From contig JBQTHM010000006.1 of the NCBI GenBank assembly GCA_052389895.1, positions 2,056-66,055 on the forward strand: a stretch of 64,000 nt of DNA, written 5' to 3'. Shown here one piece after another: positions 6,473-18,920 of this stretch (positions within the stretch are counted from its first letter, which is position 1; the number at the start of each line of letters is the position of its first letter). The translations under genes and the position numbers were made by a program. This DNA is from Alphaproteobacteria bacterium (GTDB lineage Bacteria; Pseudomonadota; Alphaproteobacteria; Micropepsales; Micropepsaceae). The notes under the pieces were generated by a model. That model did no database searches and was not told where the DNA came from. It saw only the letters and a list, made by a program, of their open reading frames with translations.

Positions 6473-6873
6473 TGCGATACGAAGATATCAAGAAGCATTG
6501 TCTTTCCCTTCCCGGTGCCATGCTTTCCATCCAGTGGGGCAACGATCGTGTTTTCAAGGTGGCCGGGAAGATGTTCGCGGTGCTGAGCCCGCCCGGTCAG
6601 AAGCCGCCGACGCTTTCCTTCAAGACAAGCGACGACAGCTTTCACATCCTCACGCAAATGAAGCACATCCGGCCCGCGCCGTATCTGGCGCGCGCCCATT
6701 GGGTCTATCTGGAACGGCTGGGCGCGCTTCCCAAACGCGAGCTCAAGGAATATCTCACCCGCGCCCATCTGCTGGTGGCGGCAAGCCTGCCTAAAAAGGC
6801 GCAAGCCGCACTGATCCGGTCCGTAAGCAGGAAAGCGGAAAGGAAAACTAGCGCGCGCCGCCGGCGGCGCTGA
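6472..6873 (+). CDS. MmcQ/YjbR family DNA-binding protein
   Basis: ATG 6472 overlaps the holA stop (TGATG). Sequence MRYEDIKKHCLSLPGA...WGNDRVFKVAGKMFAVL is typical of the family. Confidence 0.7.
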   Translation: MRYEDIKKHCLSLPGAMLSIQWGNDRVFKVAGKMFAVLSPPGQKPPTLSFKTSDDSFHILTQMKHIRPAPYLARAHWVYLERLGALPKRELKEYLTRAHLLVAASLPKKAQAALIRSVSRKAERKTSARRRRR

Positions 6874-7534
6874 GCGGCGCACTCTGCGCGGGCTGCGGCT
6901 GCTGGGCAGCCGAAGGCCGCTCGAAAAGGCTCGTATTGGGGAAGAGGAGTCCCAGAAACTCGATGCCGATGCCTTCGCTGTGGTGGCGCGCCACGCGTCC
7001 CGCGCGATGGCCGATCAGGATGTGCTCGCCAACCGGGGGCCGCAATTCCGTCCTCACTGAAATCCCGGTCAGCGAGAAGTCCAGTACATCGCAACGGATC
7101 TGCTCGCCGCTTGCGCGCGTGAAAACCGTATGGCTCCCTGCCGCGGCCGGCGCGCGCTCGTAATTCCGGAGATGCGACTCGCCCACCAGGTGGCGGTTGA
7201 GGCGCAGCGTCAGCTGGTCCGCCAGCCGATCGCGTTTTTGCAGCGAAGACGCAAACGCCACCGCGAAGCCGGACGGCGTACGGCGCGCAATCGCGCCCTC
7301 GAAACGCCCCAAGCCGTCCAGATAGATGACGATGTTCCCCTGCGGCTCCTGTTTCAGCTCGCAGGTGACGGAAACGCCGCCGGGGGAAATATCCTCGACG
7401 GCGCAAACCGCTTCTTCCTGCGTCGCGGGAATGTAAAGCCGGCCGGAAATGGCCAGCCGCACGCGGCGAAATCGGCGGCGCTCCTTTCGCGCGCGCTCGA
7501 TCAACGCCTCGTTGCGCTTTTCGCTCTCGGACAT
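6848..7534 (-). CDS. Tandem PilZ-domain protein (c-di-GMP receptor candidate)
   Basis: Two PilZ signatures. First: RRRFRRVR ... DISPGG. Second: RNYER ... DFSLTG. These are RxxxR followed by [D/N]xSxxG. Confidence 0.75.
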   Translation of the reverse strand: MSESEKRNEALIERARKERRRFRRVRLAISGRLYIPATQEEAVCAVEDISPGGVSVTCELKQEPQGNIVIYLDGLGRFEGAIARRTPSGFAVAFASSLQKRDRLADQLTLRLNRHLVGESHLRNYERAPAAAGSHTVFTRASGEQIRCDVLDFSLTGISVRTELRPPVGEHILIGHRAGRVARHHSEGIGIEFLGLLFPNTSLFERPSAAQQPQPAQSAPLSAAGGAR

Positions 7535-7951: not shown

Positions 7952-8293
7952 ATGCGTCGCACAGCAATGCTTGCGTTCGTTCTGATCGCGCTCCCTTTTT
8001 CTGCCCACGCGCAGTCCGCAAATTACATCTCGCCGCCGCTCACCTACGGCGTAAAGACGCTCTCTTTCGACCGCTGGTGCCAGGAAGATCAGCGCTATCC
8101 CGTCGCGCGCTGCGACCAGCGGCTGGCGGCGGACGTGGCGGCGTTCGAAGAGTATCGCGCGCAAGTCGAGCGCTACGATCTGGACTATGAGATGGAGCGC
8201 ACGCGCGAATACGAGTTCGAACGCGACGTGCTAAGACGCGATCATTCGCAGCAGCCGGCGCCGCCCGACGTTATCGCGCCGTCGCCCCATTAG
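7952..8293 (+). CDS. Secreted hypothetical protein (113 aa)
   Basis: Internal ATG of ORF 7718..8293 gives a clean signal peptide MRRTAMLAFVLIALPFSAHA|QS. The mature part is rich in acidic/Arg residues. No family recognised. Confidence 0.5.
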   Translation: MRRTAMLAFVLIALPFSAHAQSANYISPPLTYGVKTLSFDRWCQEDQRYPVARCDQRLAADVAAFEEYRAQVERYDLDYEMERTREYEFERDVLRRDHSQQPAPPDVIAPSPH

Positions 8294-8961
8294 CAGCGCG
8301 CTTTGGCCGCCTCCCAGCGCGGCGCGAAACCGTCGAAATCAGCAACCTCCAGGCGCAGCGGGTCATGCGCGGCGCGTTGGGGAACGACGAGCCGCAAATG
8401 CGGCACGCGAGTGGGCCGCGTGGGCGCGCGGTTTCGCTGTCCAAAACTGGGCGGCGTCGTGTCCGTCGTTTCGCCGTCTTCGTGCACCATGGTGGACGAC
8501 ACAAGGCGCTGAAACACGATATTGCGCCCTGCCAGCACGCCGGCATCGCCCAGCACGGAGATGACGCCCAGAAATCGCGCGCGCCCGCTATGCGCGATGG
8601 GCATCAGTGCCGTCTCGATTTCCACCATCCGCCCGTCATCGGTTGCGCCCAGCGACACCAGGCATATGGGCGCGGACAGCCGCTCCGCCTGGCGCAGCAG
8701 CACGCTCAGCGCAGGCTTGCTTCCCTCATCCCAGTGGGAAAGGAATGCCGCGTCGCGCAGTTCGTGTCCGAAATAGTGGCAGAGCGTGGTTCCCGCGAGA
8801 CGGTACAGCGCGCCGCTCTGGCCGCCGGTTTCGAGAAGGAAAACGAAAGGAAGCAGACGCTTGAGCGCGCGGGGATCGATATCGGCCTGGTCGGGAACGG
8901 ATTTGGCGCCCTTGATGCGGCCCCAGTAGCCCACCACGAAATGGCTGTTTCGGTGCTTCAT
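8290..8961 (-). CDS. PAS-like (PAS_5/DUF1457-type) domain protein
   Basis: Starts at ATG 8961 (MKHRNSHFVVGYW...). The pattern DIDPRALKRLLPFVFLLE...YRLAGTTLC matches my recollection of the alphaproteobacterial single-domain PAS_5 family. Confidence 0.5.
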   Translation of the reverse strand: MKHRNSHFVVGYWGRIKGAKSVPDQADIDPRALKRLLPFVFLLETGGQSGALYRLAGTTLCHYFGHELRDAAFLSHWDEGSKPALSVLLRQAERLSAPICLVSLGATDDGRMVEIETALMPIAHSGRARFLGVISVLGDAGVLAGRNIVFQRLVSSTMVHEDGETTDTTPPSFGQRNRAPTRPTRVPHLRLVVPQRAAHDPLRLEVADFDGFAPRWEAAKARC

Positions 8962-9128
8962 CGAACTGTCCTGCTCCCCGCGCGCCCTGTCCCGCCCTGA
9001 GGCAGGAAAACGCGCAAATTCCGTCCTGCGCGAGAGCAGGAGCGAAATGCATGCCAGCGCCAAGAAGCCGGGAAATTGCGAGGCCTATTCGGAGGATGTT
9101 GGTAAACGCGCGAGCGCCGGGGCCGCAA

Positions 9129-9833
9129 TCAGCCCCATGGGCCGCGGCGGCGCCCGAAGAGGGGCACGTCGGCATATTTGAAGAAAGGCGTGAGTATGAG
9201 CCCGGCAACAAAGCCCCCGACATGGGCCAGGAATGCGACGCCGGGCCGGCCCGGATCGGTCATCGCGGCGCTGACGAGCTGAATCAGGAACCAGAAGCCC
9301 ACGACGAACACCGCCGCGATTTTCATCGGGTAAAGCAGCACCCCCAGCGGCAGAATCACGGTTACACGCGCGCCGGGGTGCACCAGCACGTAAGACGCCA
9401 GCACGCCGGATATGGCGCCCGAGGCGCCGACCATGGGAATTGTCGAATCGGGATTGGCGTAGCCATGGGTGAGTGCCGCCGCCACCCCACAGAGCAGGTA
9501 GAAGATGAGAAAGCGGATATGGCCCATCACATCTTCCACATTGTTCCCGAAAATCCAGAGGTAAAGCATGTTGCCAGCCAGATGCAGCCAGCTTCCGTGC
9601 ATGAACATCGAGGTAAAGAGGGTAAGCACCGGAGCCGGCGCTTCCAGCGCCGGGTTGAGCCGCGCGTCGCCCAGAAGCAGCGCGGGCACGAAGCCGTAGG
9701 TATAGGCCGCGCGCTCGCCGCCGGCCGCCCCCTGGGAGACTTGCCAGAGGAACACCGCGATACAGAGCGCCATGATGCCCCAGGTAAGAAAGGGCACGAT
9801 GCGCGTGGGGTTGTCGTCCGAGATCGGGATCAT
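9129..9833 (-). CDS. Rhomboid family intramembrane serine protease
   Basis: Six-TM profile. Catalytic GASGAISG and downstream HVGGF. Also HGSWLHLAGNMLYLWIFG. Confidence 0.85.
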   Translation of the reverse strand: MIPISDDNPTRIVPFLTWGIMALCIAVFLWQVSQGAAGGERAAYTYGFVPALLLGDARLNPALEAPAPVLTLFTSMFMHGSWLHLAGNMLYLWIFGNNVEDVMGHIRFLIFYLLCGVAAALTHGYANPDSTIPMVGASGAISGVLASYVLVHPGARVTVILPLGVLLYPMKIAAVFVVGFWFLIQLVSAAMTDPGRPGVAFLAHVGGFVAGLILTPFFKYADVPLFGRRRGPWG

Positions 9834-10023: not shown

Positions 10024-10974
10024 ATGATCCGTTCGAAACCGCTTGCTCTCGCGCTTTCGCTTGCGCTGGCGGCGCTGCCGCTGGTGCCCGCGCCTGCCCG
10101 CGCGGACGGCGGATTCGCCGGCGGGCTGAAATGCGTGGGCCCGGTCACCTTCAACAATTCGCTCACAATCAACAAGAACGTCAGCATCAACAAGCCGGTG
10201 ACGATCGACAAATCCATCTCGATCTACAATCCGGTCACCATCAACAAGAGCATTTCCATCGACAAGTCGGTCAACATCATCAAGAACATCGACAGTTCGA
10301 AGAAGATAAGCATCAACAAGAAGATCATCATCAACAAGGGCAAGGGCGACGCGACTGCGGAAGCCTTCGCCTTCGCGCTCGCGCGTGCAAGCTCGCGTTC
10401 CAATGCCATCGTATATGGCGGCGGCTATGTGGACCAGGCCGTGTCCTATGGCGGCGGCGGCGATATAGGCGCGCTTGCCGTGGAAGAGCCCTGCATCGAG
10501 CAATGGGCGACGCTCGTGCGCGCGGTGCATGCGGTCTGCGTGGACGTGCGCGGGCGCTCGCATCCCGCCGCGCGTATGCGCCCAGAAACCTGGATCGATG
10601 CTAGTTACTCCGGCGAAGTCTATCGCTGCCTGGAAGGATCCAGCCTGCGCGTGCGCATCGGCCACGTGGTGGAAAGCGAAAAAGGCATGGCGGCCGTCTA
10701 CGAAGGCGCAGACGAACTTGCCTGCCGTCCGGGCGAGGCGCTGCGCCATTACGCCGACGGGTTGGTGAAATGCGCCACCGCCGAGCGCGTGCCCGAATGC
10801 GCCGAGCGGCGCAATCTGCGCGCCTGGGGCGCGGGCGACATCTTCTTCTCCTATCAGACCAGGGTTTGCGCGCGCAGCTACGTCGCTTCGTATCAGGCGA
10901 AAAAAATGTCTTACGGCGCCTCGCGCGAGCTCGAGCTCACCGGCATGAGCCTGAATGGCGGCGTGGGTTATTAG
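10024..10974 (+). CDS. Secreted hexad-repeat protein with Cys-containing C-terminal domain (no family recognised)
   Basis: ORF 9865..10974. Signal peptide MIRSKPLALALSLALAALPLVPAPARA|DG from ATG 10024 (alternative 10003). Eleven xIxKxV-type hexads follow, then a Gly-rich linker and a roughly 190-aa domain with seven Cys. Confidence 0.6.
   Translation: MIRSKPLALALSLALAALPLVPAPARADGGFAGGLKCVGPVTFNNSLTINKNVSINKPVTIDKSISIYNPVTINKSISIDKSVNIIKNIDSSKKISINKKIIINKGKGDATAEAFAFALARASSRSNAIVYGGGYVDQAVSYGGGGDIGALAVEEPCIEQWATLVRAVHAVCVDVRGRSHPAARMRPETWIDASYSGEVYRCLEGSSLRVRIGHVVESEKGMAAVYEGADELACRPGEALRHYADGLVKCATAERVPECAERRNLRAWGAGDIFFSYQTRVCARSYVASYQAKKMSYGASRELELTGMSLNGGVGY
10150..10347 (+). repeat. Eleven in-frame 18-bp tandem coding repeats (A-rich)
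   Basis: Encodes FNNSLT INKNVS INKPVT IDKSIS IYNPVT INKSIS IDKSVN IIKNID SSKKIS INKKII INKGKG. The DNA unit is roughly ATCAACAAGNNNGTCAGC and is visibly more A/T-rich than its flanks. Confidence 0.9.
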
Positions 10975-12557: not shown

Positions 12558-12772
12558 AAACAACCTCCGGCCAATATCGCAATAAAAACAAGGCACTAAC
12601 CCCATACAAGAACCGCGGCGGTGCGCCTTTGGGCAACCGCAACGCGCTCAAGCACGGCCGCTATCGCAAGGAAATGCGCGCGCTGGGCGCGATGGCCCGC
12701 GAGCGCATTCAGGCGGCGCGGGCTGCCATAGCTGCGGCGGAATCCCTGCTCGGGCGTGCGCCCCCCAACTAG
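12554..12772 (+). CDS. Small basic hypothetical protein with GAPLGNRNALKHG motif
   Basis: 72-aa ORF whose start overlaps the previous stop. I recall the G-A-P-x-G-N-x-N-A-x-K-H-G motif from small orphan or phage-associated proteins but cannot name a family. Confidence 0.35.
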   Translation: MKTTSGQYRNKNKALTPYKNRGGAPLGNRNALKHGRYRKEMRALGAMARERIQAARAAIAAAESLLGRAPPN

Positions 12773-13107
12773 AAGTGCGCCGAGGGGTGATGGTGGGGCC
12801 AGCCGTTGCAATGTGCGATTTCATGGCGAAGCAGCAAGGCGGCTTCTTCTTCGCCAACTTCCGCCACTTCAGGCAAAACGATGAGGCACGTGTTGGGTCC
12901 GCGGAACGCGCACGCTTCGGCCCGGTGGCCGTCGTAGGGCCGCACGCCGCATCTCTTGGAAACCGTCCAGTAGGGCAAAGTGACTACGCGCAAAAGGCCT
13001 GGGTAGGGCCGGTCGTAGTTGCTGGGAGGAAGAAAAGTCGAAGCGCCGGCGGGCGTGCCGAAAGCGACGGCGAGCAACAGCAATGTGCGTTTTACTGCGG
13101 CGTTCAT
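12769..13107 (-). CDS. Small secreted protein with HExxH motif (mini metallopeptidase-like)
   Basis: Signal peptide MNAAVKRTLLLLAVAFGTPAGA|S. C-terminal LLRHEIAHCNGWPHHHP contains HEIAH plus additional His and Cys. Confidence 0.5.
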   Translation of the reverse strand: MNAAVKRTLLLLAVAFGTPAGASTFLPPSNYDRPYPGLLRVVTLPYWTVSKRCGVRPYDGHRAEACAFRGPNTCLIVLPEVAEVGEEEAALLLRHEIAHCNGWPHHHPSAHF

Positions 13108-13238: not shown

Positions 13239-13916
13239 TCAGGGCCCCGAGTCGCAATGGATGATCTGTGCCGTATTGCCGGCGGCGACCGAAGAACCCG
13301 AAACGTCGCCCCCCACATTGCCGACGGCGGCGTTCACGATCGAGGAAACGCCGCTGCTGTTTTCCTGGAAGTTGTCGGCTGTGAAGTTCGCGGCGTTCGA
13401 AACGATCTGGATCTGGTTGGCAATCGCCGTCGCGGCGAGCGAAACATCGTCGCCCACGTTAAACACCTGGGCGTTCAGCTGCGCCGACGGATCGGCGGCC
13501 CCGCAAATCTGTTCGCTTTCCACCGTCATCTTGGCGGGATCGCTGAAGATGCCTGCCGCGTTGCAGACGGCCGTGACTGAAAGCGACACGTCCTTTCCCA
13601 CGTTGAAGACCGTTGCGTTCAGCTTGGCCCCCACGTCGCCCATATTCACCTGGCTGTTCTTCACCTTGCTGTCCGTCATGGTGAAGATTTCGACCATGTT
13701 GCTGACGGCGGCGACTGTTTCCGTCACGTCGCCGCCGACATGGGCCACGTCGAAATTCATCTGCGACCAGATCGTTCCCAGATTGACCTGGCCGTTGATG
13801 ATTTCGGCACCCGTGCTGTTGCCCTTGCCCTTACTCGAGTCCGAGGCGTAGGCCGGGATCGCTTGCGCGCATATCAGCGCTGTACCCGCGATAAGGATCG
13901 TTACGAGTTTGTGCAT
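13239..13916 (-). CDS. hfaD: HfaD-like secreted repeat protein (holdfast anchor component candidate)
   Basis: ATG 13916 gives signal peptide MHKLVTILIAGTALICAQAIPAYA|SD. Four imperfect repeats of about 27 aa: NFDVAHVGGDVTETVAAVSN, NATVFNVGKDVSLSVTAVCN, NAQVFNVGDDVSLAATAIAN, NAAVGNVGGDVSGSSVAAGN. Lies third in an hfaA-hfaB-like operon. Confidence 0.5.
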   Translation of the reverse strand: MHKLVTILIAGTALICAQAIPAYASDSSKGKGNSTGAEIINGQVNLGTIWSQMNFDVAHVGGDVTETVAAVSNMVEIFTMTDSKVKNSQVNMGDVGAKLNATVFNVGKDVSLSVTAVCNAAGIFSDPAKMTVESEQICGAADPSAQLNAQVFNVGDDVSLAATAIANQIQIVSNAANFTADNFQENSSGVSSIVNAAVGNVGGDVSGSSVAAGNTAQIIHCDSGP

Positions 13917-14862
13917 GTCCGTTCTCCTCCTCAATTTGTTTTCCTGGCGCGCCGGTCTCGTTCGCCGCCACGCGCGCTTCCGCGAGCGGGGGCGGACTGT
14001 TGCTGTCGGCCAGCGGATCCGCGCCCCCGCGGCACGCTTCCGGGCCTGTGCGATAAAGACGGGACATGATTTCCAGCACCGCGCGCTCGACCACCGCGCG
14101 AACCGCAAGCTGGACTGGTTCGAGCGCGGATTCGCCGACACCGATATCGATGATGTGCTGGCCGAGAATTGCGAATACGCCGGCCTGAAGCTGGCGGCCG
14201 ACGATCTGCTTCTGGTAAGAGATAACGTCCACGACCTCGAGCGTGCGCGTGTCCACCAGCCTGAGATCGAGGCCGACGTTCATTACATAGGTCTTCGCGT
14301 CGGCGTTCGCCGCCGCGTCGGCCTGCCTGCCGGACCAGAATGCGGAGTTGCCGGTCGAGCGGATGTTGTAATTGAGCTCGGTTATGCCGCCGACCAGGTA
14401 GAACTCGGATCCTGCAATGGAGCCCGCGAAAATCTTGCGATAGCCGTCTTCTGGCCGCGCATCTCCGATGAGCTTGTTGTTGGCGTATTTCAGTTCGAGT
14501 TCGGCGACCGAAGTATCGTAACGCTCGACCAGGCTCACGCCGGCCTTGGCCAGCGCAGAAATGGCCATCAGGGCGGCGCCCTGCGTAATCTTGCGCCCAC
14601 CCCCGTCGGCCTCGAATTTGGCGGTGTAGTCGGCGATCTGGCCCACTGCGATTCTGGGCGCGGGGCGTCCGCGATTGTACGCACCAAGACACTGCAACGC
14701 GTGCGAATAGGGCGTTTCGTTGGAGATCACCGGCGCGTCGCCAATGGGCGTCGCATAGCGGCCGTCATAGCCTGCGGACGTGCTGATGCACCCGCCGAGG
14801 GCGAGCGCCATCAGCGTGAGCGCCAACGGCTTGGCAAAGTGATTGCGGGCGCGGCGCGTCAT
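13831..14862 (-). CDS. hfaB: CsgG-family outer-membrane lipoprotein, HfaB-like
   Basis: Lipobox LALGGC|IS. CsgG-like core: RIAVGQIADYTAKF...ITQGAALMAISALAKAGVSLVERYD. ATG 14862 has a GAGGA box 9 nt upstream (alternative 14871). Confidence 0.8.
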   Translation of the reverse strand: MTRRARNHFAKPLALTLMALALGGCISTSAGYDGRYATPIGDAPVISNETPYSHALQCLGAYNRGRPAPRIAVGQIADYTAKFEADGGGRKITQGAALMAISALAKAGVSLVERYDTSVAELELKYANNKLIGDARPEDGYRKIFAGSIAGSEFYLVGGITELNYNIRSTGNSAFWSGRQADAAANADAKTYVMNVGLDLRLVDTRTLEVVDVISYQKQIVGRQLQAGVFAILGQHIIDIGVGESALEPVQLAVRAVVERAVLEIMSRLYRTGPEACRGGADPLADSNSPPPLAEARVAANETGAPGKQIEEENGHAQTRNDPYRGYSADMRASDPGLRLGLE

Positions 14863-14874
14863 GCAGATCATTCC

Positions 14875-15285: not shown

Positions 15286-15488
15286 CGCACCCGCCGCAGA
15301 TTCGTTGCGGAGCTCACGGAGCAACCGTCATGCCAAAGGCAAACGGGAATTAACCCAGGCTTGTGTGCCGCAGCGGCACAACTGCGCTCGCGGGCGCACC
15401 AAAACGGCTCCAAACGTAGTGCTCGTGCGGGCCGGAACGCCGCGCTAAAGTGGCGCGAGGCGGGCGTAAATTTCGGGAACTTCAGCTA

Positions 15489-16205
15489 ATGGCCTTTTTT
15501 CAGGATTCCCGTCCGGCCCGCGAGCCCTTTCTGAACGCACCGGCCAGCGTGCTCTGGCTTATCGGCGCCCTGCTGGCGTTGCATGCGGCGCGCGCGTTTC
15601 TGCCCGAAAACTTGGCTAACGAAATCCTAATCAACTATGCCTTCGTGCCGGCGCGCTATTCGGGCGCGGCAGCGAGTGTGCCGGCGGCGAGCCTGTTCGA
15701 CCAGGCGGTAACGGCGGTGAGCTACATCTTCCTGCATGCCAATTTCACGCATGTGATCATCAATACGTTGTGGCTGCTTGCCTTCGGGCCGGCGGTCGCG
15801 CGCCGGCTGGGCGCCGGGCTGTTCATTCTGTTCTTTCTTGTCTGCGGGATCGCCGCGGCCAGCGTGCACCTTGCCCTCAATTGGGAGTCGCCAGTGCCGG
15901 TCGTGGGCGCTTCCGGTTCGGTGGCAGGGTTAATGGCGGCGGGCATCCGCATCATGTATCGCGAGCGCACGCTCCAGTTCGGCGAACGGCCGCGAATCGC
16001 CCCGATTCTCGCCCCGCCGGTCCTTTTCTTTTCGGCCATCTGGGTTGTGGTGAACATCATCGCGGGAATCACCGGACTCGGTCTGACGGACAACATGGCG
16101 ATTGTCGCCTGGGAGGCGCATTTGGGCGGGTATTTCACGGGGCTCTTCCTTCTCGGACCGCTCGACCGCCTGCGCGCACGGCGCATCGGCGCCGCTGCGG
16201 CTTGA
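15489..16205 (+). CDS. Rhomboid family intramembrane serine protease (second paralog)
   Basis: ATG 15489. Catalytic GASGSVAG and downstream HLGGYFTG. Multi-TM profile. Confidence 0.8.
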   Translation: MAFFQDSRPAREPFLNAPASVLWLIGALLALHAARAFLPENLANEILINYAFVPARYSGAAASVPAASLFDQAVTAVSYIFLHANFTHVIINTLWLLAFGPAVARRLGAGLFILFFLVCGIAAASVHLALNWESPVPVVGASGSVAGLMAAGIRIMYRERTLQFGERPRIAPILAPPVLFFSAIWVVVNIIAGITGLGLTDNMAIVAWEAHLGGYFTGLFLLGPLDRLRARRIGAAAA

Positions 16206-16552: not shown

Positions 16553-17746
16553 TTGCTGAACGTGCTGCCGGGGGGCCAAGCGGCCAACACGCGCCTGCCG
16601 CTCGAAGGCCATGCCGCGCTCGCGCGCTTCGCGCTTGATCCGCGCATCCTCCATCTCAATCATGGATCTTTCGGCGCAGCGCCGCACTCCGTTCTCGAAG
16701 AACAGCAGCGCTGGCGCATGCGCATGGAAGGAAATCCCATGCGTTTCTTTCTCGACGAACTGCCGCTGCTTTTGCGCGAGCGCGCGGCCGGCGCGGCACG
16801 CTGCTTCGGCGGCGATGCGGAAGGTTGGGTGTTCGTCGAGAACGCAACAGCAGCTGCGAACGCCGTGCTCAAATCGCTTCCGTTGCGTGAAACCGACGTA
16901 TTGGTCACCACCTCGCATGCCTATGGCGCGGTATTGAAAACCGTTCAACGCCGCGCGTCGGAAACAGGGGCCAGTCTTCGCATTGCGGAAATTCGCGCGC
17001 CTGTCACAGGCGAAGACGAAATTGTGGAAGCAATTGCGCGTGCACTTTGTCCCCGCACGCGCCTGCTTGTCGTCGACCATGTGACATCGCAGACCGCGGC
17101 CGCGCTTCCTATTGCACGCATCATTTCTTTGGCGCACGAAAGAAACGTTCCCGTACTTGTCGATGGTGCGCATGCCGTAGGCATGCTCGCAGTGGACGTC
17201 GCTTCCATGCAGGCGGACTGGTACACGGGCAACGCGCACAAATGGATGTTTGCGCCCAAGGGCTGCGCACTTCTATGGACTGCACCCGTGTTGCGCGCAT
17301 CGACGCATGCTCACGTCACGTCCCATGGCTGGGGCGCGGGTTATTTGGCGGAGTTCGATTGGGTCGGCACGCGCGATCCTTCACCCTGGCTCTGCTTTGA
17401 TGCAGCTGTGCAGGCGCATGACTGGTTCGGTGGGCAGTCGCTTATGGCGCGCAACAACGCGCTGGCTTTGCAAGCGGGCGATTATCTTGAAAAACGTCTC
17501 AAGGCGCCGCGTGCGGCGCGCGGCAGTTTGCAATCGGCGATGACATCTTTGCGGCTGGCGCCGAAGGCCACAGTGGAACAGACGATTGAACTCAGGCGCG
17601 CGCTCGAAACCCAATATGGAATCGAAGCGCCGTTCTTTCCTTTTCAGGGCGAGCTTTGGCTGCGCGCGTCCGCACAAATTTACAACGAGATGGACGATTA
17701 CGTTCGCCTCGCCGCGGCCGTCGAAGCGCTTCTTAGTTCTGGATGA
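16553..17746 (+). CDS. Class V aminotransferase-fold PLP enzyme (isopenicillin-N-epimerase-like)
   Basis: TTG start. Motifs LNHGSFGAAP and NAHKWMFAPKGCALLW (PLP-Lys). Confidence 0.8.
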   Translation: MLNVLPGGQAANTRLPLEGHAALARFALDPRILHLNHGSFGAAPHSVLEEQQRWRMRMEGNPMRFFLDELPLLLRERAAGAARCFGGDAEGWVFVENATAAANAVLKSLPLRETDVLVTTSHAYGAVLKTVQRRASETGASLRIAEIRAPVTGEDEIVEAIARALCPRTRLLVVDHVTSQTAAALPIARIISLAHERNVPVLVDGAHAVGMLAVDVASMQADWYTGNAHKWMFAPKGCALLWTAPVLRASTHAHVTSHGWGAGYLAEFDWVGTRDPSPWLCFDAAVQAHDWFGGQSLMARNNALALQAGDYLEKRLKAPRAARGSLQSAMTSLRLAPKATVEQTIELRRALETQYGIEAPFFPFQGELWLRASAQIYNEMDDYVRLAAAVEALLSSG

Positions 17747-18920
17747 GGCCGGTGAGTTCGCTGGCGGTGACCGGACGGCCGTAGAGAAACCCCTGCGCAT
17801 AATCGCAGCCGAGTTCGGCCAGCAGTTTCGCGGTGGCTTCGGTCTCTACGCCTTCGGCCACGACCTGCATGTCGAGCGCGTGCGCAAGCGCGATCACCGC
17901 TCCTACGATTTTGCGATCCTCCGTATGCGTCGCGCAGTGGCGGATGAAGCTCTTGTCGATTTTTACCTCATCGATGGGAAGGCGCTGCAGCCGCGAGAGC
18001 GAGGAATAGCCCGTGCCGAAATCGTCCACCGCCACGCGCACGCCGCGCAGGCATAGGGCGGAAAGCGCCGCGGCGAGGCTTTTCTGGTCTGTTGCCATTT
18101 CGCCTTCGGGAATCTCAACGGTGAGTCCGTCCAGCGTGATCTGAAAGCGCTCGCACATGCGATGGAGCTCGGCCACGAACTGGGGATCGAGAATGGTCGT
18201 AATGGGAACGTTTACGCTCACATTCACGGGTGCAGACAATTTGGTCCACAGCGACCGGTTCTGGAAAACTTTGCGTAGCATCGTGCTGGTCAGCTCGTTC
18301 ATGCCGCTTTTGTCGAGCTTGTGTAAGAACCGCGCTGGCGACAGTAGCCCTTCCGACGGATGTTGCCAACGAACCAGCGCCTCGGCGGAAGCCACTTCGC
18401 CGTCTGGCAGCGACACGATCGGCTGATAGCGCACGACGATTTCCTCGTTGCGGATCGCCTGCACCACCTCGTCGCGGCTCGGCGTAAACGCCTTTTGCGG
18501 GTAGGCCGCCAGTGCTTCCAGCAACGGCTTGATGGTGAAGGGTTTGCGTACGCAACCGATGATCTTGAGCTTGTAATCCTCGGCGAGGCGGCTCACGGAC
18601 CTGAGAAGCTGCTGGCTATGGCCGGAAATGAGAAGGATGCGGCCCTGGTAGTCCTGCGCAGCAAGTTCGTTCAAGATCGCTACGCCGTCGAGATCGGGAA
18701 GCGAAAGATCCATAATGCAAAGATCGGGTGCTTCGCGCGCCACAGCGCGCTCGAATTCGCGACCCGCAGAGAATGCTTTGGTGCGATAGCCCGCGTTTTC
18801 GAGTCCTCGGGTAATTACATCAAGAACGCCAAGCTCGTCGTCTACGACAAAGACGGTCTGCCGCTGCGCCTGCGTGTCGGCGCGTTCTTCCGCGATTGAA
18901 TCTGCCTTGTGGTTCGCCAT
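17733..18920 (-). CDS. Response regulator with EAL domain (c-di-GMP phosphodiesterase)
   Basis: REC domain (VFVVDDELG...MDLSLPDLDG) followed by an EAL domain (EALVRWQHP, DDFGTGYSSL, QGFLYGRP). Confidence 0.9.
   Translation of the reverse strand: MANHKADSIAEERADTQAQRQTVFVVDDELGVLDVITRGLENAGYRTKAFSAGREFERAVAREAPDLCIMDLSLPDLDGVAILNELAAQDYQGRILLISGHSQQLLRSVSRLAEDYKLKIIGCVRKPFTIKPLLEALAAYPQKAFTPSRDEVVQAIRNEEIVVRYQPIVSLPDGEVASAEALVRWQHPSEGLLSPARFLHKLDKSGMNELTSTMLRKVFQNRSLWTKLSAPVNVSVNVPITTILDPQFVAELHRMCERFQITLDGLTVEIPEGEMATDQKSLAAALSALCLRGVRVAVDDFGTGYSSLSRLQRLPIDEVKIDKSFIRHCATHTEDRKIVGAVIALAHALDMQVVAEGVETEATAKLLAELGCDYAQGFLYGRPVTASELTGLIQN

Follow-up and report, generated by a model that had tools for sequence, protein, structure and literature searches.

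The holdfast of Caulobacter is among the strongest biological adhesives. Among the proteins that anchor it to the cell, HfaE is to our knowledge the least understood: databases describe it as 'hypothetical' or as DUF8217, and we know of no structure. We analyzed 64,000 nucleotides of contig JBQTHM010000006.1 (assembly GCA_052389895.1, positions 2,056 to 66,055 of the forward strand; this whole stretch is called the window below), in which one gene encodes a secreted protein with a tandem array of six-residue units (hexads). An earlier reading of the same DNA, the original prediction, had assigned this protein to no recognisable family and had suggested that it could be either an additional exported fibre or anchor component acting with an HfaB-like system or a phase-variable surface protein. 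Our results indicate that the gene probably specifies a holdfast anchor protein of the HfaE type, and that its host is an uncultured alphaproteobacterium related to Rhizomicrobium (Micropepsales-like).

HfaE is CC_2639/CCNA_02722 in Caulobacter crescentus and Hbal_0649 in Hirschia baltica (Hershey 2019, PMC6372794; Chepkwony, Hardy & Brun 2022, doi 10.1101/2022.07.20.500906). It has been described in these studies as a fourth holdfast anchor protein, secreted, whose N-terminal half is divergent and whose conserved C-terminal half carries three motifs found in all HfaE proteins, PHPASQV, CNERSLLR, and DGGVG. Its gene adjoins the hfa operon or lies eight genes away from it, as in C. crescentus. 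Deletion of hfaE in C. crescentus and in H. baltica results in holdfast shedding, and the polar placement of the protein needs HfaA, HfaB, and HfaD. The Caulobacter proteins HfaA, HfaD, and HfaE all form high-molecular-weight species that resist heat and sodium dodecyl sulfate (SDS). The literature calls HfaE Caulobacterales-specific. This restriction fails, as the named relatives of the window protein belong to Rhizomicrobium, a member of Micropepsales, or to metagenome-assembled genomes of Alphaproteobacteria.

The window protein (P0001) carries the precomputed annotation PF26654.1, which is DUF8217; the assignment comes from this annotation, and the copies of Pfam and NCBIfam that we searched are without the PF26654 model. 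All 86 full-length homologues retrieved from a large protein database at E ≤ 1e-8 carry PF26654 as well, and those with a named host come from Rhizomicrobium sp. or from alphaproteobacterial metagenome-assembled genomes. With every GTDB species represented by a single genome, 153 of the genomes scanned encode a relative, the window's own genome not being among them, and the best match shares 77% identity in the C-terminal domain (C-domain). The homologues have a common build, with a signal peptide, a short Gly-rich stretch with one Cys, and the hexad array, which always finishes ...I[IV]INKGG, followed by an A-x-A-x-A linker, a second Gly-rich stretch, a domain with seven Cys residues, and a C-terminal GGVG.

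A profile of the C-domain (A1), searched against 1.84 billion representative proteins, retrieves a second tier of ~300-residue proteins with full-domain coverage and E-values of 1e-17 to 1e-30. These proteins carry PHPASQV, CNERSLLR, and DGGVG verbatim, belong to the same Pfam family PF26654, and fall in clusters from Brevundimonas, Asticcacaulis, Maricaulis, Henriciella, Hyphomonadaceae, and Caulobacterales, all of them labelled 'hypothetical protein'. NCBIfam holds no HfaE model, and the second-tier proteins have no match in it. The profile–profile comparison of the two tiers with hhalign gives a probability of 99.96% and an E-value of 5.6e-39 over 157 columns with 32% identity, and all seven Cys columns are aligned. 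The motifs of the window protein, SHPAARM, CAERRNLR, and NGGVG, stand in the same order as in HfaE, and its relatives have EFPASHM, CTERTNLR, and DGGVG at these places. A literature search on PF26654, on DUF8217, and on Rhizomicrobium together with holdfast found no relevant paper.

The genomic context is that of an anchor locus. As the original prediction had noted, a rhomboid gene is divergent from the gene and a CsgG/HfaB gene lies nearby; the hfaA-hfaB-hfaD operon is 2.3–4.3 kb downstream, with hfaB 2.9 kb away. The Caulobacterales-type locus L087 has a layout like that of the window, with a PAS_5 gene divergent from the DUF8217 gene and hfaD-hfaB-hfaA 3.4 kb away. Two further Caulobacterales-type loci, L084 and L086, also have the divergent PAS_5 gene, together with PilZ and GMC oxidoreductase genes nearby, as in the Rhizomicrobium-type locus L002. 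Because the Pfam family, the motifs, the profile–profile match, and the synteny agree, we regard the protein as an HfaE homologue. The suggestion of an additional exported anchor component is thereby borne out, 2.3 kb from the hfa operon, and the claim that the protein lacks a recognisable family has to be withdrawn in favor of DUF8217/HfaE.

Several points weigh against this assignment. All three motifs are variants here, and the identity at profile level is 32%. The link to HfaE runs through the motifs, taxonomy, and synteny of the second-tier proteins rather than through the CC_2639 and Hbal_0649 sequences themselves, and the HfaE experiments were made in C. crescentus and in H. baltica and not in the clade of the window. 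The hfaABD operon lies within 10 kb of the gene in only ~6 of 82 related loci. A folded C-domain with four disulfides is hard to fit through the narrow pore of a CsgG-type protein, although the Caulobacter HfaE poses the same difficulty. AlphaFold does not fold the array with confidence, so that its structural role is one that we infer. Finally, a long array is not essential, since some members of the clade have just two to four hexads or none.

The features of the gene and its surroundings are collected in the table. The sequence GAGGGG sits 8 nt 5' of the ATG, and the start of the protein (MIRS...) matches the start in the closest homologues. The signal peptide has a basic N-terminus, a hydrophobic core, and an A-x-A site, and is predicted, as read by eye, to end ...APARA before DGG. 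The segment IVYGGGYVDQAVSYGGGGDIG follows the array, and the Gly-rich segment and the seven Cys residues of the C-terminal part (residues 157, 172, 202, 234, 250, 259, and 282) are present as the original prediction had described them; an eighth Cys, residue 37, precedes the array. The array is strongly basic (12 Lys and 3 Asp, net charge about +9, pI 10.2), the linker is acidic, and the charge of the C-domain is close to neutral. No transmembrane segment is present in the mature protein. An Rfam scan of the whole window gave no family at gathering score, and a promoter and terminator scan near the gene gave nothing useful.

Table. Coordinates of the hfaE-like gene, its parts, and the neighboring genes in the window, with one gene pair from related loci.
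Feature	Position	Strand	Basis or remark
hfaE-like gene (316 aa plus stop)	10024..10974	+	Translation; Pfam PF26654/DUF8217
Sec-type signal peptide, predicted, aa 1-27, MIRSKPLALALSLALAALPLVPAPARA / DGG	10024..10104	+	Sequence reading
Lone Cys37 just 5' of the array	10132..10134	+	At least 90% conserved in 66 aligned homologues
Eleven 18-bp units encoding hexads I-x-K-x-V/I-x (aa 43-108)	10150..10347	+	Translation, Tandem Repeats Finder
Acidic Ala/Ser- then Gly-rich linker, aa 109-153: DATAEAFAFALARASS...VYGGGY...YGGGGDIG	10348..10482	+	AlphaFold pLDDT 30-39
Conserved HfaE/DUF8217 C-terminal domain, aa 154-316, 7 Cys	10483..10971	+	AlphaFold, hhalign
Motif SHPAARM, counterpart of HfaE PHPASQV	10558..10578	+	
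Motif CAERRNLR, counterpart of HfaE CNERSLLR	10798..10821	+	
C-terminal NGGVGY, counterpart of HfaE DGGVG	10954..10971	+	
Rhomboid intramembrane protease gene	9129..9833	-	Pfam Rhomboid 2.8e-34; catalytic GASG and His present; divergent from hfaE-like gene
PAS_5 (PF07310) gene	8290..9063	-	Kept in 65 of 82 related loci
Short hfaD-like gene (225 aa)	13239..13916	-	NF037936, E 1.5e-9, 37.6 bits, below cut-off 100
hfaB (CsgG-like lipoprotein)	13831..14871	-	NF037935, 375.5 bits against cut-off 300; Pfam CsgG
hfaA	14875..15324	-	NF037934, 85.8 bits against cut-off 50
Second rhomboid gene	15450..16205	+	Pfam Rhomboid 1.8e-24; catalytic motifs intact; divergent from hfaA
hfaE-like gene pair, 96% identical, with 162-bp indel	L088 31-1296 and L089 39-1142		Perfect 27-nt direct repeat

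The eleven in-frame 18-bp units that the original prediction had placed after the signal peptide translate exactly as it had given them, in the order FNNSLT INKNVS INKPVT IDKSIS IYNPVT INKSIS IDKSVN IIKNID SSKKIS INKKII INKGKG. Tandem Repeats Finder returns a period of 18, and a repeat search finds 10 copies in register at a spacing of 18 nt. The units are 60–89% identical to each other, and long exact repeats are absent. When the protein was shuffled 5000 times with its composition preserved, 11 consecutive hexads never arose, and nowhere else in the 64-kb window, in any of its six frames, do three or more strict hexads follow one another; the array is therefore not a product of chance. The repeat DNA had been singled out as A-rich, and the drop in GC content is real, to 0.44–0.46 in the array from 0.6–0.78 in the flanks. 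It is confined to codon positions 1 and 2 (GC1 0.18, GC2 0.26), and GC3 is 0.894 in the array compared to 0.764 in the rest of the gene, with the host-preferred codons AAG, AAC, and ATC in use. A foreign, A-rich DNA island is rejected on these grounds: the low GC content of the array follows from its amino-acid composition, and the DNA is thus native.

Pooled over 1012 hexads from the clade, the consensus has I (75%) or V (11%) at position 1, K (92%) at position 3, and I (49%) or V (37%) at position 5, so that these three positions are conserved at 86–92%; the variable sites are N/Y/S at position 2, N/P/S at position 4, and T/N/D at position 6. At the variable positions the identity autocorrelation is 0.35, 0.29, and 0.26 at lags of 12, 24, and 36 residues, compared to 0.18, 0.22, and 0.19 at lags of 6, 18, and 30. 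The peaks at 12, 24, and 36 show that the real unit of the array is a double hexad of 12 residues, for example IYKPVT-INKNIN, and that the super-period is 12 and not 18 residues. The number of hexads has no preference for multiples of 2 or 3.

Orthologues of the gene exist and have ~2–25 hexads, with the reading frame kept in every array; a looser count, from the 80 best full-length proteins, gives 7–25. Most of the 227 proteins with CTERxNLR have runs of 3–15 strict hexads, and a few members of the clade have only 2–4 or none. Two consecutive strict hexads occur in none of the 219 Caulobacterales-type proteins, which are those with CNERSLLR; in these the region equivalent to the array is Gly/Pro/Val-rich, with an irregular alternation of the V-N-V type. 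As far as the sequences of the two groups go, the hexad array is specific to the clade of the window and new relative to the HfaE of Caulobacterales. Some relatives (P0209, P0051, and P0200) have long, low-complexity, Q/N/S-rich and prion-like inserts between the array and the C-domain, for example GDQSQNQEQNQNQENFQQQDQNQTSNNTNTNNND.

The comparison of copy numbers shows that relatives differ in whole hexads. Proteins that are ~80% identical differ in their arrays by indels of exactly 1, 2, 3, or 9 hexads. The closest case is that of P0017 (25 hexads) and P0025 (16 hexads), whose genes are 96% identical in DNA, with 7 mismatches past nt 270, and differ by one in-frame indel of 162 bp (9 hexads) that carries the same 27-nt sequence AACATCGACAATTCCAAGACCATCAAC at both ends. 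Shared ends of this kind are typical of unequal recombination, or of slippage, between direct repeats. This 162-bp difference is read from two short metagenome contigs, for which an assembly effect is conceivable. With units that are only 60–89% identical, the allele in the window should be fairly stable. In L088, one of the two loci with this gene pair, a GT87-family glycosyltransferase gene directly follows the hfaE-like gene.

AlphaFold2 models based on an alignment of 66 sequences have residues ~155–290 at a predicted local distance difference test (pLDDT) score of >90, mostly as β-structure with two short helices. The signal peptide, the array, and the linker score <50 and have no secondary structure, with the array at ~45, and the C-terminal tail from residue 292 is likewise <50. 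A Foldseek search of the PDB with this model gave a best E-value of 0.17, with YEATS and transthyretin sandwiches at target-normalised TM-scores of ≤0.33, and searches of PDB sequences that started from the window protein, from a long-array relative, or from the profile of the C-domain brought up no meaningful match. The C-domain of HfaE/DUF8217, as modeled, may represent a fold without a solved representative. The model of a relative with 24 hexads (only 7 alignment rows, mean pLDDT 37.5) has a three-residue strand in every six residues ('EEE---') over 14 hexads, at pLDDT 50–60, and Foldseek found nothing for it in the PDB at E ≤ 0.001, with a few β-helix proteins in the noise. The original prediction had proposed a short-rung β-solenoid or an amyloid-like stack, to be checked with AlphaFold: the regular strands appear, at low confidence, in the long-array relative, and the window array itself stays without secondary structure. 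Low pLDDT is known to result from shallow or misaligned alignments of repeats. The array is clearly β-prone and under strong pattern selection, and a β-solenoid or amyloid fold for it is unproven by the models.

These data also bear on what else the array could be. It is unlikely that it is a disordered basic tether that serves as a flexible, adjustable spacer between the outer membrane and the C-domain. Such a tether would agree with the AlphaFold model of the window array and with a copy number that varies from ~2 to 25 in single-hexad steps, and in curli secretion the substrates of CsgG-type pores pass unfolded. Disorder would, however, not hold Ile/Val at 86% at positions 1 and 5 and Lys at 92% at position 3 over 1012 hexads, and the composition, rich in β-branched residues and Asn and poor in Gly, Pro, Ser, and Glu, is atypical of disordered linkers. 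The low pLDDT can be explained by shallow or misaligned alignments, and HfaE forms SDS-resistant multimers. That the array should fold alone into a left-handed parallel β-helix (LbH) with three hexads per turn, as a rigid monomeric stalk for the C-domain, is in our assessment distinctly unlikely, even though regular strands are modeled in the 24-hexad relative and a few LbH enzymes, an ice-binding β-helix, and MinC are among the non-significant Foldseek matches. The profile matches that point to such a helix are a weak one to the NCBIfam LpxD hexapeptide model TIGR01853 (E 1.2e-5, residues 42–106), at 24.4 bits against a cut-off of 242.5, and those to Pfam LbH_EIF2B (E 0.24 for the window protein and 0.0034 for P0051), at 11.9 and 17.8 bits against a cut-off of 54. 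Longer arrays score no better, as P0017, P0023, P0013, and P0062 have no LbH match. The autocorrelation has its maxima at 12, 24, and 36 and not at 18, multiples of three hexads are not favored, the site flanked by the two aliphatic positions is Lys in 92% of hexads, and the residues at position 2 are N/Y/S, not G/A/E/D; the window array is modeled without strands, and no Foldseek match reaches E ≤ 0.001. Membership in the LbH families is accordingly rejected on score, periodicity, and residue pattern.

Two further explanations concern the gene as a whole. The original prediction had raised the possibility of a phase-variable gene, and of this the change in copy number stands (~2–25 hexads and the 162-bp in-frame indel), whereas phase variation does not. 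A contingency gene that slipped-strand mispairing within the 18-bp repeats would turn on and off could be suspected from the tandem repeat within a surface-protein gene, from the near-identical gene pair with its 9-unit difference across a 27-nt direct repeat, and from the indels of 1, 2, 3, and 9 hexads among proteins that are ~80% identical. It is nonetheless extremely improbable, as the unit length is a multiple of 3 and never shifts the frame, every observed indel is in frame and a multiple of 6 residues, the window units have diverged and hold no long exact repeats, and the 162-bp difference itself might be an effect of assembly. On/off phase variation is thus excluded, and the 18-bp unit allows variation in length only. 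It is very unlikely that in this clade the protein no longer serves the holdfast system and acts together with the divergent rhomboid, as its substrate or as a rhomboid-regulated exoprotein in some other envelope process. The frequency of neighbors would suit this explanation, with the rhomboid upstream and divergent in 61 of 82 loci against ~6 for an hfaABD operon within 10 kb, as would the absence of a rhomboid at this position from the three Caulobacterales-type loci examined. In the window, however, a second rhomboid is paired in the same manner with hfaA, which suggests that rhomboids are linked to the Hfa system and do not replace it; the mature protein offers an intramembrane protease no transmembrane segment; the PAS_5 and PilZ synteny is common to Caulobacterales; and since hfaE of C. 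crescentus also lies eight genes from the hfa operon, distance is no evidence of uncoupling.

The neighborhood has further features of its own. The rhomboid gene is directly upstream of the hfaE-like gene and divergent from it in 61 of 82 related loci and is absent at that position in the three Caulobacterales-type loci examined (L084, L086, and L087), where PAS_5 is the direct divergent neighbor of hfaE (about 9084-9802, -). The pairing of PAS_5 with hfaE in both clades suggests a functional or regulatory partnership, of which we know no earlier description. The pairing of a rhomboid gene with hfaA recurs in L001, L005, and L007. For neither rhomboid of the window is there an obvious substrate, as mature HfaE has no transmembrane segment. 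The hfaD orthologue in L001 is assigned to PF27277 HfaD and is likewise short (216 aa), compared to 424 aa for HfaD of the Caulobacterales-type L087. The true start of hfaA is probably an internal Met (MRLKEW...). Two genes related to cyclic di-GMP flank the anchor region. One, at 6848-7534 (-), encodes a PilZ-domain protein and is kept in 50 of 82 loci as well as in L086; the other, at 17733-18920 (-), encodes a receiver-EAL phosphodiesterase. Directly downstream of hfaD, an open reading frame of 112 aa at 12769-13107 (-) has a signal peptide and a C-terminal HEIAH (HExxH-like); Pfam, NCBIfam, and a tblastn search of the 82 related loci gave no match for it, and it could encode a small metallopeptidase-like protein particular to this lineage or be no gene at all.

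By analogy with the work on Caulobacter, the HfaE-like protein would be exported by Sec and would then become part of the outer-membrane HfaA/HfaB/HfaD anchor, with HfaA, the CsgG-like HfaB, and HfaD needed for its placement. It would self-assemble into heat- and SDS-resistant multimers and tie the holdfast polysaccharide more strongly to the cell envelope. The conserved, disulfide-rich C-terminal β-domain is the core of the family, and in this lineage the hexad array would take the place of the Gly/Pro/Val-rich N-terminal region that Caulobacterales HfaE has. We picture the array as a basic, β-strand-prone extension in which Ile/Val (positions 1 and 5) and the Lys between them (position 3) would line one face and Asn, Thr, and Ser the other, and in which K-P would often form a turn within the 12-residue double hexad. 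It might act as a polymerising or spacing element whose length is tuned by unequal recombination between units, possibly with anionic components of the envelope or holdfast, such as lipopolysaccharide or DNA, as partners. Cys37 could close a loop with the C-domain, in which the number of Cys residues is odd, or connect one subunit head to tail with the next. What the rhomboids process may be a partner protein; in the mature HfaE-like protein there is no transmembrane segment for them to cut.

A more far-reaching version of this model is doubtful in our estimation: that the array is an undescribed self-assembling β-module (a short-rung solenoid or cross-β structure) forming the fibre of a Micropepsales-type anchor, with its length tuned by recombination and with rhomboid-dependent maturation of the array protein or its partners. 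If true, a self-assembling array with rhomboid maturation would represent a new polymer chemistry for holdfast anchoring outside Caulobacterales, and the dependence on rhomboids would be the first link of bacterial rhomboids to an adhesin system. Apart from this version, the window locus implies that the HfaA/B/D/E anchor set exists outside Caulobacterales, and relatives are encoded in the genomes of at least 153 GTDB species, Rhizomicrobium-like bacteria that live in soil and freshwater. The Pfam family DUF8217 is now tied to the name HfaE. The conserved, confidently modeled C-domain is separable from an N-terminal module that evolves freely, and the hexad arrays of variable length provide a natural series for probing whether the N-terminal half of HfaE is a spacer or a polymeriser. 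The recurring rhomboid neighbors may point to a processing step.

The array invites comparison with several known repeat structures. In the antifreeze protein of Tenebrio molitor, 12-residue β-helical coils are held by internal disulfides, and we take the 12-residue period and one flat polar face (Thr/Asn) to be common to that protein and the array; the window array differs in having no Cys, and no match in sequence or fold was found. With the LbH enzymes LpxA, LpxD, and GlmU (Pfam Hexapep/LbH), it shares a period of six residues in which the first is aliphatic and the fifth is V/I, but the window protein is secreted, has no enzyme domain, and has Lys at position 3 and no Gly/Ala at position 2. 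Searches for the curlin repeat signature and for similarity to HfaA or HfaD gave no match in Pfam or NCBIfam at E ≤ 10. Like curli CsgA, HfaA, and HfaD, the protein is secreted, repeat-bearing, β-prone, and encoded beside a CsgG-like HfaB; in contrast to curlin, its repeat has 6 or 12 residues with Lys and Ile/Val instead of a ~20-residue Ser/Gln/Asn/Gly unit, and it has a globular disulfide-rich domain that curlins lack. HfaE itself is the closest described protein. The clade of the window departs from it in the variant motifs (SHPAARM/EFPASHM, CAERRNLR/CTERTNLR, and NGGVG), in the regular I-x-K-x-V-x hexads of the N-terminal half, in a host outside Caulobacterales, and in the rhomboid gene that sits between PAS_5 and hfaE in the window. 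The two have in common the signal peptide, a variable N-terminal half of low complexity, a conserved Cys-rich C-terminal half, the order of the motifs and the GGVG end, as well as the Pfam family, a PAS_5 gene upstream, hfaABD nearby, and a size of ~300 aa.

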